Source of the DNA: Desulfosoma sp.
GTDB taxonomy: Bacteria; Desulfobacterota; Syntrophobacteria; Syntrophobacterales; DSM-9756
Assembly (NCBI GenBank): GCA_037481835.1
Contig: JBBFKW010000008.1
Span: forward strand, 64,001-128,000
Direction: 5' to 3'
Length of the DNA: 64,000 nt
The position numbers and the translations under genes were made by a program. Numbering within the stretch: the stretch's first letter is position 1; each line of letters begins with the position of its first letter. This document shows, piece after piece, positions 3,181 through 20,656 of the stretch. The notes under the pieces are model-generated. The model saw nothing but the letters and a program-made list of their open reading frames with translations, was not told where the DNA came from and ran no database searches.

Positions 3181-4107
3181 ATGAAAAGATGGGTCTTTTT
3201 GTTTCCCGGCCAAGGGTCCCAGTATGTGGGCATGGGCAAGGACTTGTATGAGAACTATCCGAAAGTTCGGGAACTGTTCCACCGTGCCGACGATATTCTC
3301 GGCATGGGGATCACCAAGCTCTGCTTCGAAGGGCCCGAAGACGTCCTGACCCAGACGCAAAACGTCCAGCCGGCCATCACGGTGGCCAACCTGGCGTGCC
3401 TCACGGTCTTGGCCCATCACGAAATCTTCCCGGTGGCGGCCGCCGGGCACAGCCTGGGCGAATACAGCGCCCTGTACGCCGCCGGTGTCTTGTCGCTGGA
3501 AGACACTTTGAAACTCGTCCGATGGCGCGGGCTCTATATGCACGAGGCATCCTTGGAGACGCCCGGGGCCATGGCCGCCGTCATGGACATGCCGGAAGAG
3601 AGGCTTCAAAACATCTGCCGGCTGTGCGATGTGGAAATCGCCAACATTAACAGCCCGGACCAGGTCATCATCACGGGACCCGTGGACGCCGTCGACAGGG
3701 CTTTGGAAGCCAGCGCCGCCGAAGGGGCCAAGAAATGCGTGAAGCTTAATGTGAGTGGCCCGTGGCATAGTCGGTGCCTGGAATCGGCCCGACAGAAGTT
3801 CGAACCCCATGTGCGGGCCGCAGCTTTTTCCGACCCGAGAATCCCCATCGTCAACAATGTGGACGCCAAGCCCCTCAAAAACGCCGCCGAAGCCCCGGAA
3901 AAGCTTGTTCGGCAAATCTGCGGCGCCGTCTTGTGGAAGCAATCCATGGAGTGGTTTTTGGCCAACGGCTATGATCACTTTGTGGAAGTGGGACCCAAAA
4001 AGGTCCTCCGGGGGCTCATGCGGCGTATCGACCGGAAAGTCATCATCCACAACGTGGAAGATGCCGCAACCCTGGCCTCATTCCTCCAGGCCAACGGCTC
4101 CGACTAG
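3181..4107 (+). CDS. fabD: Malonyl-CoA:ACP transacylase
   Basis: FPGQGSQ, GHSLGEYSAL, NINSPDQVII, VSGPWHS and EVGP motifs. Confidence 0.95.
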   Translation: MKRWVFLFPGQGSQYVGMGKDLYENYPKVRELFHRADDILGMGITKLCFEGPEDVLTQTQNVQPAITVANLACLTVLAHHEIFPVAAAGHSLGEYSALYAAGVLSLEDTLKLVRWRGLYMHEASLETPGAMAAVMDMPEERLQNICRLCDVEIANINSPDQVIITGPVDAVDRALEASAAEGAKKCVKLNVSGPWHSRCLESARQKFEPHVRAAAFSDPRIPIVNNVDAKPLKNAAEAPEKLVRQICGAVLWKQSMEWFLANGYDHFVEVGPKKVLRGLMRRIDRKVIIHNVEDAATLASFLQANGSD

Positions 4108-4269: not shown

Positions 4270-6429
4270 TCACTCATGGGTCTCTTGATACAGGACTTGT
4301 ACGGCTTGGTGGATGACGGTTTCCGGGACGGCGGTGCGTCTTTCGACGCGGCCGATACCCTGTGGGACGATCCACACGAGTCCTGAGGCGCCTTTCTTCT
4401 TGTCGTGGTGGATGTGGCGAAGCAGCCCTTGGGAATCGGCCGCAAGGGGCGTCGTCAGCGGCAGGTGATAGGCCCGCAGGACGCGATCCATCCGCGCCGC
4501 CAGTTCCGGATCCGTTACCCCCAAAAGGATCCCCATTCGGACGGCCACCCTCATCCCGAGGGCCACCGCATGACCGTGGGGAAGCGTGTAGCCGCTCAGG
4601 GCTTCCAGGCCGTGACCCGTAGTGTGCCCCAGATTCAGCAGTTGGCGCAGCCCGAAATCCTTTTCGTCGGCCGCCACGTAACGGCCTTTCAAGGCAAGGC
4701 TTCGAGAGACGAGATTCTGCGCCATGGAAAGCGGCAGCGGGAAGGACACCCCTTTCGGGCCGCAGGCATCGGCATGGGCTTCCAGGGTTTCCATGAGGCC
4801 GCCGTCGTCTAGGAGGGCGTACTTGATCACTTCGGCCATGCCGTTTTGCCATTCCGCATCGGGCAGTGTCTGGAGAAACACGGGATCCACCAGAACGGCC
4901 TGGGGGTGATGGAACGTGCCGATGAGGTTTTTCCCTTCCTCGAGATCCACCCCCGTTTTTCCTCCGAGGCAGCTGTCCACCTGGGCCAAAAGCGTTGTGG
5001 GCACCTGGACCAGGGGAACGCCCCGCATGAAGATGGAGGCGAGAAAACCGATGACATCCCCCGTGACCCCGCCTCCCACGGCGACAAAGACGCTGCCGCG
5101 GTCCGCGCCGTGCCTCAGGGCAATCCGGGCGAGTTCTTCCACCGTCTGGAGGCGCTTTTTGTCTTCACAGGCGTCCCATTCGATCCATGCCTCGGAAAAC
5201 TGCTCGCGGCCCAAGGTGTCCCCCCACAGGGACGCCACCTTCCGGTCCACGAAGAAGTAGGGGCGGCGTTCCGGGACATGGTCCCGCAGCCATGAGCGAA
5301 GGGACTTGGCCCCATGAGGTTCCAAGGTGACGGCAGGGGGAAGGCACAGAGCCCAAGAGGGCCCCTCGTGAATTTTCATTGTCGTCGCCTGGGAGACCGC
5401 AGCGTGCGGTGACCGGGGCGCGGCGTCCCCCGTCCCGACGGCGTCCTCCATCGAAGTTTCAGCGTGCCCTGACAAAGCAGAAGCCGGAGAATTATCCTCT
5501 TGGTGGGCCGGGGCTTCGCGGCCTTTACCGTCCCCGGCGTTCGGCAGACTGTGCCCGTGGTTGTTGGCGTTGTGGTGCCAAGTGAGGAGTCTGTTCGTTT
5601 CTTCCAGGGCCTGGAGGCAGAAGTCCCCGAAATGGGACCGGGTTTTTTCGAAGGCCTCAAGGAAGTCCTGCCACCGGCCGTGTTCCACGGCATCGGCGGT
5701 TTCGGAAAACACGCGGCGAAGCACCCGAAGCGCTTCATTCTTATAGGGGTTTTCCATGGCGATGGCCGCATAGAGGGCCGGATCCTGGGCGAACAGCCTT
5801 CCGATGAGGTCCAATTCCAACCGGTAGATGGGGCTCGTATACCGCAGGCTTTCCGCGGCGTCGATCCCCAGGTCCCTGAGACAATGCCCCAAGACCACCG
5901 TCGTCACGTGGGGGATAAGCTGGATGACGGTCATCATGCGGTCGTGTTCTTCCGCCGAACACACGTGAATCTTGAGACCCGCGCGGCGAAGCACATCCAT
6001 GAGCCATTCCCGGGGACCGTCGGCCACCCGGCCCGGGCACACGATCATGGTCTGGCCGACGAAATCCTTGACATAAGGCCCATACATGGGATGGAGGCCC
6101 ATGTACCATGCGGCGGATCCTTCCATGGCTTTCAGGGGCGGCACTTTCAAAGAGCAAATGTCCACGACCAACTGGCCCGATCGAAACCGCGGGGCCAGGC
6201 TTTCCAATATACGGAAAGCTTTGTGGAGCGGCACGCTGACGAGGACGGCATCCGACCGATCGATGACGTCTTCGTTGCTAAGCGGCGTGGCCACATCGGA
6301 TATAGCGACCGGGTATCCATGGTCCTCGAAGAACCGATGAAAGAGCTTGCCCATGGCGCCCAGGCCGCCGATGATCCCGATGCGGGGTTTGTCCTTCCAG
6401 TGACTAAAATCCGACACGCTTTCCGTCAT
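4270..6429 (-). CDS. tyrA-aroB: Fused prephenate dehydrogenase (TyrA) and 3-dehydroquinate synthase (AroB)
   Basis: N-terminal IGIIGGLGAMG, GLHPMYGP, EEHDRMM. C-terminal GGGVTGD, VPTTLLAQVDS, GGKTG, EVIKY, LNLGHTTGH, HGHAV. One continuous 719-aa ORF. Confidence 0.85.
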   Translation of the reverse strand: MTESVSDFSHWKDKPRIGIIGGLGAMGKLFHRFFEDHGYPVAISDVATPLSNEDVIDRSDAVLVSVPLHKAFRILESLAPRFRSGQLVVDICSLKVPPLKAMEGSAAWYMGLHPMYGPYVKDFVGQTMIVCPGRVADGPREWLMDVLRRAGLKIHVCSAEEHDRMMTVIQLIPHVTTVVLGHCLRDLGIDAAESLRYTSPIYRLELDLIGRLFAQDPALYAAIAMENPYKNEALRVLRRVFSETADAVEHGRWQDFLEAFEKTRSHFGDFCLQALEETNRLLTWHHNANNHGHSLPNAGDGKGREAPAHQEDNSPASALSGHAETSMEDAVGTGDAAPRSPHAAVSQATTMKIHEGPSWALCLPPAVTLEPHGAKSLRSWLRDHVPERRPYFFVDRKVASLWGDTLGREQFSEAWIEWDACEDKKRLQTVEELARIALRHGADRGSVFVAVGGGVTGDVIGFLASIFMRGVPLVQVPTTLLAQVDSCLGGKTGVDLEEGKNLIGTFHHPQAVLVDPVFLQTLPDAEWQNGMAEVIKYALLDDGGLMETLEAHADACGPKGVSFPLPLSMAQNLVSRSLALKGRYVAADEKDFGLRQLLNLGHTTGHGLEALSGYTLPHGHAVALGMRVAVRMGILLGVTDPELAARMDRVLRAYHLPLTTPLAADSQGLLRHIHHDKKKGASGLVWIVPQGIGRVERRTAVPETVIHQAVQVLYQETHE

Positions 6430-6489: not shown

Positions 6490-7563
6490 TCACGAGGCCC
6501 CGGCCGCCGCCTTGGCCGTATCGTCCCGGCCTTTGCGATGGGTCCTGAGGATGGTTCGCCCCACGGCTTGGGCCACGGGCTCGAGCCGATCCAGGAGGTT
6601 CGCCATGGCTTCGGGCGTCAGGGATTGGGATCCGTCACTCAGAGCCTCGTGGGGCCGCACATGCACTTCCAGCATGAGCCCGTCGGCGCCGGCGGCCACG
6701 GCCGCACAGGCCATGGCGGGAATGAGGTCCGTGCGACCCAGGGCGTGGCTGGGATCCACGATGACCGGCAGGTGGGTGAGTTTTTTCAGCAAAGGCACGG
6801 CGCTGAGGTCCAAAGTGTTTCGCGTTTCCGTCTCAAAGGTGCGGATGCCGCGTTCGCAGAGGATCACCTTCTCGTTGCCGTGGCTCACGATGTATTCGGC
6901 CGACATGAGGAACTCTTTGATGGTGGCCGACATGCCGCGTTTGAGGATCACCGGCTTGTCCACCTGCCCCACTTCGGTCAAGAGTTTGAAGTTTTGCATG
7001 TTGCGCGTGCCGATTTGGAGCACGTCGGCGTATTTGTAGACCAGAAGCAGGTCTCGGGCGTCCATGACCTCCGTGACCACCGGCATGCCGGTGCGGCTGC
7101 GCACGTCGCTCATGAATTTCAGGGCCAGTTCCCCAAGCCCCTGGAAGCTGTACGGGGATGTGCGGGGTTTGAAGGCGCCGCCCCGCAGCATGGGAATGCC
7201 CAGGGCGTGGAGAGCGTCCGCGATTTCATCAAGAACCTCCCTGCCCTCCACAGCGCACGGGCCGGCGATGATGGGAATGGAGCGACCGCCCAGTTCCACG
7301 TGGGCGCCGATGGAAATGGTCGTGTTTTCTTCCTTGAACTCGCGGCTCACGAGTTTGTACGGCTGCAGGATGGGATGTGCCGCTTCCACGCCCGGAAAGC
7401 TTGCAAAAGGAATCTCCTGGATGAGGTCCCTTTCGCCGATGATTCCCACGATGGTGCGGCGTTCGCCCCGGGAAAGATGGGTGCGCAACCCCATCTTTTC
7501 CACTCGAGCCACCAGTTGCCTCAGTTCTTCGTCCGTGTGTTCGGGTTTCATGACAACAATCAT
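6490..7563 (-). CDS. aroF: DAHP synthase, type I-beta, with N-terminal regulatory domain
   Basis: IAGPCAVE, GGAFKPRTSPYSFQG, QIGTRNMQN, CERGIR and DPSH motifs; MIVVMK N-terminal domain. Confidence 0.93.
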   Translation of the reverse strand: MIVVMKPEHTDEELRQLVARVEKMGLRTHLSRGERRTIVGIIGERDLIQEIPFASFPGVEAAHPILQPYKLVSREFKEENTTISIGAHVELGGRSIPIIAGPCAVEGREVLDEIADALHALGIPMLRGGAFKPRTSPYSFQGLGELALKFMSDVRSRTGMPVVTEVMDARDLLLVYKYADVLQIGTRNMQNFKLLTEVGQVDKPVILKRGMSATIKEFLMSAEYIVSHGNEKVILCERGIRTFETETRNTLDLSAVPLLKKLTHLPVIVDPSHALGRTDLIPAMACAAVAAGADGLMLEVHVRPHEALSDGSQSLTPEAMANLLDRLEPVAQAVGRTILRTHRKGRDDTAKAAAGAS

Positions 7564-7649
7564 GGCAGGTCCTCCTTGCCTTGTGTCTGAGGAAAACGCG
7601 CGTGTTTCCCTCTTTGTTTAAGTTATCGGCACGGTCGTGCCGAACCTCC

Positions 7650-7685
7650 AAAACACAAAAGGCCGTGAGCTTGTGCCCACGGCCT
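7650..7685 (-). terminator. Second (downstream) terminator-like hairpin of the aroF leader
   Basis: Minus strand AGGCCGTGGGC-acaa-GCTCACGGCCT followed by TTTGTGTTTT. Confidence 0.65.
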
Positions 7686-7697
7686 GGCAAGGTCCAT

Positions 7698-7735
7698 AAA
7701 AAAGGCCGTGGGCTTTTGGGGTCAGCCCACGGCCT
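7698..7735 (-). terminator. Attenuator terminator hairpin of the aroF leader
   Basis: Minus strand AGGCCGTGGGCT-gaccccaaa-AGCCCACGGCCT-TTTTT, a perfect 12-bp stem with a U tract. Confidence 0.85.
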
Positions 7736-7765
7736 CGGTGCCGGCGTCCAAGGACTTCGGACGGC

Positions 7766-7852
7766 TCAGCGCGGTGGTCGGCCGACCCCATCGGGGCCGT
7801 AATACCACCCATAATAAAAGTAAAAGCGCCGAGCCGTTCCCTTGATGCTCAT
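7766..7852 (-). CDS. Aromatic-amino-acid attenuation leader peptide MSIKGTARRFYFYYGWYYGPDGVGRPPR
   Basis: Hand translation, 28 aa. Eight of nine consecutive codons are aromatic (2 Phe, 5 Tyr, 1 Trp). GAAAGGA RBS. Lies between a promoter and the terminators upstream of aroF. Confidence 0.85.
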   Translation of the reverse strand: MSIKGTARRFYFYYGWYYGPDGVGRPPR

Positions 7853-7906
7853 CGTCCGTCCTTTCAGGTGGACCATCACGCCCTGCGTACTCTTGGCAGG
7901 TGATCC

Positions 7907-7936
7907 CTTATAGAGGAGCTCATCGGGGGATGTCAA
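7907..7936 (-). promoter_or_regulatory. Putative sigma70 promoter of the aroF leader/operon
   Basis: Minus strand TTGACA (7936-7931)-N18-TATAAG (7912-7907). Confidence 0.55.
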
Positions 7937-8006
7937 GAGCCTTGGTGCATTTTTTTCGGCACTGCGGGGAGGGGGTCGTCGTGCGCGCTCTCTTTAGAAC
8001 TTTTCC

Positions 8007-8035
8007 TTGACAAGCCGAGGGGGATTGCCTATAGG
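8007..8035 (+). promoter_or_regulatory. Putative sigma70 promoter of rplM-rpsI
   Basis: TTGACA-N17-TATAGG. Confidence 0.5.
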
Positions 8036-8083
8036 ACTGAGCTTCGAGTCGGTCACCAGTGGCGGTTTAATGGAGATATACGC

Positions 8084-8539
8084 ATGAAAACGACCAGTGC
8101 CAAGTTTGATGCCAACGGAAGAAAGTGGATCGTGGTGGACGCCGAAGGTCAGGTTCTCGGCCGGTTGGCCAGCGAAATCGCCGTGAGGCTTCGGGGCAAA
8201 CATCTGCCCACCTTTTCCCCCCATCTGGATACGGGCGATTTCGTAGTGGTCATCAACGCCGAAAAAGTTCGTCTCACCGGCCGCAAGTGGGACCAGAAAA
8301 AATACTATCGCCATTCGGGCTACCCCGGAGGGCTCAAGGTCACCACGGCGAAGAAACTCAATCAGGAACACCCCGAGCGGCTCATTGAATTCGCCGTGCG
8401 CGGCATGCTCCCCAAGAATCGACTGGGCCGCAAGCTCCTCAAGAAGCTCAAGGTCTACAGCGGGGCCGAGCATCCTCATGAAGCCCAGCAGCCCACCCCG
8501 TTGAAACTCGGCGGCCGGGCGCCGGTAAAGGAGTCGTAA
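8084..8539 (+). CDS. rplM: 50S ribosomal protein L13
   Basis: [47 protein letters not shown]. Confidence 0.98.
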
Positions 8540-19962: not shown

Positions 19963-20656
19963 AGTCAAGGATTTGCATGTCTACTACGGCGGCATTCACG
20001 CGCTCAAGGGCATCCACCTCACGGTGCCCCAAGGCCGCATCGTGACCCTCATCGGCGCCAACGGGGCCGGCAAGACCACGACGCTTCGGGCCATCTCCGG
20101 CCTTGTTCGGCCGAAGCAAGGCAGCATCACGTTTCTCGATCACGATCTCACGAAACTTCCCACCTACAAGATCATCCGCCTGGGGATCGGCGTGGCGCCC
20201 GAAGGCCGCCGCGTGTTTCCCAACCTGAGTGTCCTGGAAAACCTGGAATTGGGGGCCTACAACAGACCCGTCGGGGATTTTCAGAAAGACTTGGAGTGGA
20301 TCTACTCCCTTTTCCCGCGCCTCAAGGAACGGAGCAAACAGCTGGCAGGGACGCTGAGCGGCGGGGAACAGCAGATGCTGGCTTTGGGCCGTGCGCTCAT
20401 GAGCCGACCGAGCCTCGTCCTGCTGGACGAACCCAGCCTGGGTTTGGCTCCTTTGGTCGTGGAAGAAGTCTTCCAGACCATCCAGACCATCAACGCCCAA
20501 GGGGCGACCATTTTGCTCGTGGAACAAAACGCCATGGCGGCCCTCCATGTGGCCCACTATGCCTACGTGCTGGAAACCGGGCGCATCACCCTGGAAGGGA
20601 CCGGCGCGGAACTGCTTCAAGACGAACGCGTGCGCAAAGCCTACCTCGGCGAATAA
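19955..20656 (+). CDS. livF: Branched-chain amino acid ABC transporter ATPase
   Basis: GANGAGKTT, PEGRRVF, LSGGEQQML, DEPSLGLAP. Confidence 0.93.
   Translation: MLEVKDLHVYYGGIHALKGIHLTVPQGRIVTLIGANGAGKTTTLRAISGLVRPKQGSITFLDHDLTKLPTYKIIRLGIGVAPEGRRVFPNLSVLENLELGAYNRPVGDFQKDLEWIYSLFPRLKERSKQLAGTLSGGEQQMLALGRALMSRPSLVLLDEPSLGLAPLVVEEVFQTIQTINAQGATILLVEQNAMAALHVAHYAYVLETGRITLEGTGAELLQDERVRKAYLGE

Follow-up and report, generated by a model that had tools for sequence, protein, structure and literature searches.

In the 64,000-nt stretch of Desulfosoma sp. analysed here (contig JBBFKW010000008.1, positions 64,001 to 128,000; hereafter the window), a gap of 520 bp separates a gene for DAHP synthase (6490-7563, minus strand) from the divergent rplM gene (8084-8539). 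This gap contains a leader in which a short open reading frame (ORF) rich in aromatic codons is followed by two near-identical putative tandem terminators, termed T1 and T2, and the present work deals with the leader and with a possible relay between these terminators. The leader hairpins and the ORF all lie on the minus strand, and the letters given in an earlier description of the pair made from the sequence alone (the original prediction) are also those of the minus strand. The coordinates of the leader elements and of the genes that follow them are collected in Table 1.

The aromatic leader and its predicted ribosome-dependent switch

The leader ORF appears in the ORF listing as a longer, TTG-started version of 56 amino acids, the internal ATG being the conserved start. 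Among the nine codons of its regulatory run, eight are aromatic, with Phe, Tyr and Trp mixed. Relatives were sought by a genome scan with the DAHP synthase protein, which gave 80 loci, and a homologous leader was found at three of them: in a Desulfosoma metagenome-assembled genome (MAG) with 96% protein identity (L001), in a Desulfacinum MAG with 86% (L003) and in a Syntrophobacterales MAG with 68% (L002). At each of these loci a homologue of the leader ORF precedes the DAHP synthase gene, and the FYFYYGWY core of the leader peptide is kept in L001 and L003. The promoter boxes are also present in L001 (TTGACA / TATAAG) and in L003 (TTGACC / TATAAA). A rule-based promoter scan of the window listed no leader promoter, because its rule accepts only -10 boxes that end in T.

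Table 1. Features of the aromatic leader and of the genes downstream of it
Feature	Position	Strand	Details
Candidate promoter	7907..7936	-	TTGACA 7936-7931, 18-nt spacer, TATAAG 7912-7907; read by eye, putative
Leader ORF, 28 codons, MSIKGTARRFYFYYGWYYGPDGVGRPPR	7766..7852	-	AAGGA 6 nt 5' of ATG
Protector (1:2-type) hairpin, three helices	7763..7835	-	7835-7826/7772-7763, 7809-7804/7778-7773, 7799-7793/7789-7783
Regulatory codon run UUU UAC UUU UAU UAU GGG UGG UAU UAC (F Y F Y Y G W Y Y)	7799..7825	-
Antiterminator (AT)	7717..7790	-	UGGGGUCGGCC.G.AC 7790-7777 with GU.G.GGCUGACCCCA 7730-7717; duplex -27.7 kcal/mol
Terminator 1 (T1)	7696..7736	-	12-13 bp stem, 9-nt loop, U6 tract; -26.8 kcal/mol
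Proposed relay helix X	7675..7713	-	T1 3' arm 7713-7703 + T2 5' arm 7685-7675; 11 perfect pairs closing 17-nt spacer
Terminator 2 (T2)	7647..7685	-	11-bp stem with one G.U, ACAA loop, UUUUGUGUUUU tail; -21.2 kcal/mol
Additional leader hairpins between T2 and start codon	7564..7643	-	7643-7626, 7612-7589, GGCA/UGCC 7580-7564
First controlled gene, DAHP synthase with N-terminal ferredoxin-like domain	6490..7563	-	Pfam DAHP_synth_1 2.7e-78, DAHP_snth_FXD 1.4e-19
Second gene, fused prephenate dehydrogenase + 3-dehydroquinate synthase (tyrA-aroB)	4270..6429	-	Pfam PDH_N, PDH_C, DHQ_synthase, DHQS_C

The folding of the transcript up to the loop of T1 (3' end at 7715) was computed under constraints representing ribosomes at varied positions. 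When no ribosome is present, the minimum free energy (MFE) structure is the protector hairpin with its three helices. When the ribosome is stalled on an aromatic codon, the MFE structure is the AT, and this holds for 8/8 stall masks; when it stands at the stop codon, the 5' strand of the AT is covered and neither the protector nor the AT is found in the MFE structure. The 3' strand of the AT consists of the inner half of the 5' arm of T1 together with the T1 loop. The same mask-dependent folding is obtained for L001, and L003 folds in the same way under stall. The inner two helices of the protector are kept in the window, L001 and L003, and the outer helix in the window and L001 only. Across these three genomes one pair of the AT has undergone a compensatory change, from C-G to U-A, and another a one-sided change, from G.U to A-U; the nucleotide changed in the AT can still pair with its other partner, in the protector (G-C to G.U). 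T1 is always in the MFE structure once its 3' arm is present; therefore the choice between AT and T1 must be kinetic, as in classical attenuators. The antiterminator able to open T1, which the original prediction had postulated, is consequently found in the leader, being the MFE structure in all stall masks and showing covariation.

The region 7300-8300 was also compared with Rfam by cmscan; up to E = 10 no leader family was reported, only two chance-level hits to unrelated families, and the covariance models of the amino-acid leader families (Phe, Trp, His, Leu, Thr) gave no match. Nevertheless, the features that define leader-peptide attenuators are found in silico: an ORF with cognate codons, terminators and an AT that depends on the position of the ribosome. 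From these in silico features it is close to certain that the operon for aromatic amino acids is preceded by a leader-peptide attenuator of transcription in which the ribosome is the mediator.

Two predicted terminators with a common stem

T1 is composed of the 5' arm AGGCCGUGGGCU (7735-7724), the loop GACCCCAAA (7723-7715) and the 3' arm AGCCCACGGCCU (7714-7703), followed by UUUUUAU (7702-7696). T2 is composed of the 5' arm AGGCCGUGGGC (7685-7675), the loop ACAA and the 3' arm GCUCACGGCCU (7670-7660), which includes a single G.U pair, and is followed by UUUGUGUUUU. The distance from the U5 run to T2 is 12 nt, or 17 nt from stem to stem. The 3' arm of T1 (GCCCACGGCCU, 7713-7703) is perfectly complementary to the 5' arm of T2 over 11 nt. 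Every detail that the original prediction had given for the pair (two near-identical tandem terminators, their 12-nt spacing, one G-U and the perfect 11-nt cross-match) is correct on the minus strand. The cross-complementarity is automatic, since both hairpins share one stem sequence, and it adds no information beyond the G.U pair that weakens the own helix of T2.

The 11-mer with at most one mismatch has 14 matches in the 64 kb, where 3.0 are expected and 0/100 shuffles reach 14. Three of the matches are exact, all of them at these hairpins, where one further match with one mismatch is also located. The 106-nt piece that contains both terminators folds at -56.4 kcal/mol (z = -4.63; 0/200 shuffles as good). 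Among the 13 hits to a hairpin plus T run on both strands of the whole window, T1 and T2 have the longest stems (13 and 11 bp, respectively), and no other tandem or attenuator-like terminators are found among them. The standard terminator scan, which allowed loops of 3-8 nt, listed T2 only, T1 being missed because its loop has 9 nt. Terminators on the plus strand were ruled out, as no T run follows either hairpin on that strand, and so was a dispersed palindrome of the repetitive extragenic palindromic (REP) kind, as there are no further exact copies in the 64 kb. In L001 and L003 the stem motif occurs at the leader only, and three other loci have one isolated copy each.

T2 is devoid of a sensor of its own: there is a single aromatic leader ORF, and the loop of T2 is not complementary to the antiterminator. 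An ORF of 24 codons (MDLARPWAQAHGLLCFGGSARPCR, 7697-7623, minus strand) has its AUG inside the U tract of T1 and runs across T2. It was considered as a second leader ORF and discarded, since it has no Shine-Dalgarno sequence and, from the corresponding ATG of L003, the T2 arm is read in a different frame, giving an unrelated peptide. The freed 3' arm of T1 is the only evident means of neutralising T2.

Both terminators are present in L001 and L003, with arms identical to those of the window and the same G.U pair in T2. The T2 arm positions that remain identical are 22 nt between the window and L001 and 20 nt between the window and L003, and the T1 arms are identical too. At four-fold degenerate sites of the adjacent gene, 125/192 are identical between the window and L001 (65%) and 87/167 between the window and L003 (52%). 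The loops and the spacer vary: between the window and L003, 6/9 positions of the T1 loop and 2/4 of the T2 loop are identical, and the spacer differs. Rough arithmetic gives a probability of about 1e-4 to 1e-6 for the neutral survival of the 20-22 arm positions of T2. The unchanged arms, set against four-fold identities of only 65% and 52%, indicate that selection maintains T2 and that it did not arise recently as a neutral copy. This contradicts the neutral duplication that the original prediction had put forward as its own possible refutation, T2 being kept under selection in two genera. In L003 the tail of T1 is interrupted (UUCGUUUUU) and T2 is followed by U6 (UUUUUU); T2 looks there the better terminator. 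With this better U tract, a T2 left without regulation would be expected to throttle the operon.

The leader of L002 encodes the aromatic peptide MNCNSWQSFSFLYYYPYYHRREGAPGMR and has one terminator only, with a loop that can pair with a segment 5' of it; at the base of its stem a G-C pair of the window is changed to A-U. The candidate AT of this leader (GGUAUGC / GCAUACC) is the MFE structure for 1/6 stall masks only, so the one-terminator version is loosely modelled. Since the single terminator is T1-like and has the complementary loop, T1 would be ancestral, and T2 would be a later, downstream copy of its stem minus the AT-binding loop.

The pairing of the 3' arm of T1 with the 5' arm of T2 gives the proposed helix X. 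Its computed energy, compared with that of T2, is -23.1 against -21.2 kcal/mol in the window, -23.2 against -22.3 in L001 and -23.0 against -19.6 in L003. This bears out the claim that the 5' arm of T2 matches the 3' arm of T1 better than its own partner, X being at least as stable as T2 in the three genomes. When the AT is enforced, the ensemble of L003 contains X at 0.93 and T2 at 0.075. To go from X to T2 by the direct path (findpath), a barrier of 12.7 kcal/mol has to be crossed; therefore whichever of the two forms first should persist.

According to the mechanism proposed, in the off state the Phe, Tyr and Trp tRNAs would be charged and the ribosome would reach the leader stop codon, covering the 5' strand of the AT. 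T1 would then form and halt most polymerases, and its 3' arm would be locked in the hairpin, so that T2 would form as well and give a second chance to stop read-through. In the on state the ribosome would stall on the FYFYYGWYY codons and break the protector hairpin; the AT would pair with the T1 loop and the inner half of the T1 5' arm, blocking T1. The freed 3' arm of T1 would pair with the emerging 5' arm of T2 to give X, and the 3' arm of T2 would be left partnerless. In this way one stall would disable both terminators. It is presumed that T1 and T2 terminate transcription, that X precedes T2 in vivo and that expression responds to aromatic amino acids.

Evidence for and against the relay

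Conservation, energetics and condition-dependent simulations support the relay in silico and make it plausible. The statement as a whole, that is, an aromatic leader-peptide attenuator with a duplicated terminator and a relay through X, is considered somewhat probable. Co-transcriptional folding was followed by Gillespie simulation with single base-pair moves and chain growth on the RNA 7716-7656, and the share of X grows as transcription slows relative to folding, most clearly at 55 C. At 37 C, X was reached in 14/24 runs and T2 in 8/24 at 20,000 units/nt, and in 3/4 and 1/4, respectively, at 100,000 units/nt. At 55 C the counts were 17/36 for X and 13/36 for T2 at 1,000 units/nt, 25/33 and 6/33 at 4,000 units/nt, and 20/20 and 0/20 at 20,000 units/nt. 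A control in which every pair of T2 was flipped keeps the hairpin (-20.1 kcal/mol) and loses the cross-pairing; at 37 C and 20,000 units/nt it gave T2 in 20/20 runs and X in 0/20, therefore the loss of T2 in the simulations is due to X. This is the in silico form of a check suggested with the original prediction, namely to break the cross-pairing while both hairpins are kept, and it abolished the effect. In the off state, simulation of the full-length chain at base-pair resolution formed T1 and T2 in 2/2 runs.

A coarse master-equation model, which runs about 4-5 times fast compared with the stochastic simulation, shows the same trend. At 55 C with a stalled ribosome it gives the AT at 0.54-1.00, T1 at 0.23-0.00, X at 0.21-1.00 and T2 at 0.49-0.00, and with the ribosome at the stop codon T1 at 0.90-1.00, T2 at 0.77-1.00 and X at 0.00, which in the model is a clean switch. 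The temperature matters in this respect: known Desulfosoma species are moderate thermophiles and Desulfacinum species are thermophilic, according to the available part of PMC8539903, so 55 C would be the more relevant temperature if the organism of the window resembles them.

Several results weigh against the relay. Fast growth of the chain favoured T2: at 37 C, X and T2 were reached in 1/15 and 10/15 runs at 200 units/nt, 3/32 and 24/32 at 1,000 units/nt, and 2/25 and 16/25 at 4,000 units/nt, and even at 55 C they were reached in 0/12 and 7/12 runs at 200 units/nt. The idea that X wins since its strands emerge first is not borne out under these conditions, because T2 is favoured by its fast tetraloop nucleation and by transient pairing between the spacer and either arm. 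The few runs made for L003 follow the same trend with low counts of X (0/10, 1/10 and 2/7). A base-pair step lasts some 0.1-5 microseconds, and a nucleotide is transcribed in about 20 ms. The physiological speed would then correspond to about 4,000-200,000 units/nt, the range where X becomes dominant, but with such a conversion the regime is uncertain. Furthermore, the X/T2 runs at base-pair resolution assume that the 5' arm of T1 is already held by the AT; when the chain starts at 7736 and this arm is free, T1 was found in 13/20 runs, X in 4/20 and T2 in 13/20 (37 C, 20,000 units/nt). At 37 C the AT is weak in the coarse model of the full chain (0.01-0.78), and X reaches only 0.11-0.64. At equilibrium in the window at 37 C, with the AT enforced, X and T2 share the ensemble at 0.31 and 0.69 when the 3' end is at 7660, and at 0.49 and 0.51 when it is at 7650. 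All these models omit RNA polymerase, Nus factors, pausing, pseudoknots and the moving ribosome.

The comparison of genomes adds points of the same sign. T2 is absent from L002 and from eight leaders of Gemmatimonadaceae described below, so it is lineage-specific and attenuation as such is possible without it. The arms of T1, T2 and X are invariant in the three genomes that have them (all 12 pairs of T1 are unchanged), which gives zero covariation; therefore the cross-pairing is inseparable from duplication plus selection on each hairpin. Besides, a 9-nt stem core (GCCGUGGGC / GCCCACGGC) is identical in L002 (2925-2965) and in the window (7703-7735) despite a four-fold identity of 28%, and as L002 has no T2, four-way pairing alone cannot account for the frozen arms.

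Taken with these results, the original prediction stands in part. Its claim that the freed 3' arm of T1 captures T2 agrees with the simulations at slow transcription or at 55 C and disagrees with those at fast transcription, where T2 usually wins, and with the equilibrium at 37 C, which is even or favours T2. The claim that a single stall disables both terminators while the off state has two barriers is reproduced by the coarse model at 55 C and much less cleanly at 37 C. The identity of the arms in relatives, which it had proposed to look at, holds in L001 and L003 and does not extend to the leaders that are devoid of T2.

As an alternative, the attenuator would be real and T2 an independent backup or damping terminator, which would form regardless of the state of T1, lower the leak in the off state and cap expression in the on state. 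The nucleation of the tetraloop and the success of T2 in most fast simulations, the AT-enforced equilibrium of the window at 37 C, the lack of covariation linking the 3' arm of T1 to the 5' arm of T2 and the single-terminator leaders of relatives all fit this explanation. It is nevertheless judged rather unlikely. In each of the three genomes the stability of X exceeds that of T2, strongly so in L003, and X takes over at slower simulated transcription and at 55 C in a way that depends on the cross-pairing. A constitutive strong terminator placed before a biosynthetic operon would also waste most induced transcripts, and it is T2 that has the better U tract in L003.

The roles could instead be divided in such a manner that T2 is the effective terminator and T1 mainly a relay element comparable to the C:D hairpin of the his leader, its own termination being minor at least in Desulfacinum. 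The tails found in L003 (UUCGUUUUU after T1 and UUUUUU after T2) suggest this, and the scheme of protector, T1 and T2 against AT and X has the logic of A:B, C:D and E:F against B:C and D:E, as presented in the accessible part of PMC4046918. However, in the window and in L001 it is T1 whose stem is longer, and its U6 is uninterrupted there, and the sole terminator of L002 is T1-like, which makes such a division improbable. More improbable still is that the hairpins are not regulatory RNA at all but a neutral local duplication, a REP-like element or paired binding sites for a protein on DNA or RNA, an idea to which the four copies of one 10-11-mer inside 76 bp and the oddly invariant stem core, kept even in L002, lend some weight. 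Against it, the arms are fully kept at 52-65% four-fold identity while the loops and the spacer change, and the exact motif is found nowhere else in the window and, in L001 and L003, at the leader only. U tracts follow both hairpins on the minus strand alone, and loops of 9 and 4 nt are unsuited to an operator with fixed spacing.

Relation to known systems and neighbouring features

Attenuators of the trpL, pheL and hisL type, as described in the available parts of PMC11802643 and PMC4046918, contain an ORF with cognate codons and mutually exclusive protector, antiterminator and terminator structures, the position of the ribosome deciding among them. The leader of the window has the same logic of ORF, protector, antiterminator and terminator as these enterobacterial systems. 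On the other hand, it has two terminators under one leader ORF, its Phe, Tyr and Trp codons are mixed and it controls DAHP synthase. The E. coli DAHP synthase is under repressor control according to the part of PMC11802643 that is available. The same part of this review describes, after Neshat et al. 2014, the aroR-aroF system of C. glutamicum, in which a Phe-Tyr-Phe leader peptide is present and read-through goes up on ribosome stalling. Both cases have an aromatic leader peptide 5' of an operon that starts with DAHP synthase, although the phyla are unrelated and the comparison is made with the description in the review.

In the his leader, as far as the accessible part of PMC4046918 describes it, the stall is passed along alternating hairpins (A:B, C:D, E:F against B:C, D:E) to a terminator with which the sensor has no direct contact. 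The leader studied here resembles it in its chain of protector, T1 and T2 against AT and X, and the feature on which such a relay depends, namely segments able to pair with either neighbour and re-pairing along a chain, is found for it in silico. It differs in its middle hairpin, which is followed by a U tract and nearly repeats the last hairpin, so that the chain would include two terminators. The C:D hairpin of the his leader is not known to be a terminator. The original prediction had considered the design foreign to classical attenuators; this is too strong as regards the relay of a stall, which the his leader already performs, but a middle hairpin that is itself a terminator is unusual.

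Tandem attenuation has been described in the mgtCBR leader, which has two short ORFs (PMC3641672, in its available part). Tandem attenuators and riboswitches resemble the present leader in having more than one termination decision per leader, but they have one sensor per decision, whereas here one leader ORF and one AT would serve two terminators. As there is only one aromatic leader ORF, the leader lacks the separate sensor for each terminator by which tandem attenuators are recognised. In the literature covered, which leaves most subscription journals outside, no description was found of a pair of sequence-identical terminators that a single leader ORF controls by way of the freed arm of the first. 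Aromatic leader control of DAHP synthase and the relay of hairpins are already known, and the architecture with a duplicated terminator is new within the literature covered.

The leader of the window may tentatively be regarded as a natural attenuator in which one sensor controls two intrinsic terminators by strand exchange, the 3' arm of T1 serving as anti-terminator for the copy at no extra cost; we consider this quite possible, if a little short of probable. T2 may also act as a time gate: if the stall ends and the AT is unwound before the polymerase passes T2, the arm would be reclaimed and T2 would fire, so that read-through would take place only under lasting starvation. If the proposal is true, repression multiplies across two barriers while induction still requires one stall. 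A relay that works would show how evolution can widen the dynamic range by simple means, since a copy of the stem brings its own regulating pairing, and it would give a compact design rule for synthetic attenuators, which are now built by stacking whole units of sensor and terminator. According to the simulations, the relay should depend on how fast folding is relative to transcription, and it would work best in a thermophile.

The base system is a further leader-peptide attenuator, found in Syntrophobacterales and apparently also in Gemmatimonadaceae, and the duplicated terminator is its interesting part. Nine of the 80 loci passed a filter for aromatic ORFs, six of which belong to Gemmatimonadaceae (L011, L017, L018, L019, L039 and L049), and two more loci of this family (L040 and L047) are alike by eye. 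The DAHP synthase genes of Gemmatimonadaceae are preceded, about 80-125 nt before the start codon, by short ORFs with Tyr-rich runs such as MTRATAYRYYYYFATRLTGRGWSATR, and each of these eight leaders has a single terminator-like hairpin. From their sequences, they look like a separate family of aromatic leader-peptide attenuators in another phylum.

As for the remaining features of the locus, the three hairpins located 3' of T2 keep their stems in L001, where their loops differ, and an AGGAGG sits in the loop of the last of them before the start codon (7580-7564). The tyrA-aroB fusion is a single protein of 719 amino acids with a linker of about 120 residues that has no family match. The plus strand has at 7921-7947 a weak terminator-like hairpin with T7 after it, which overlaps the -35 region of the leader promoter about 140 nt upstream of rplM; it may be due to chance or may form part of an rplM-rpsI leader.

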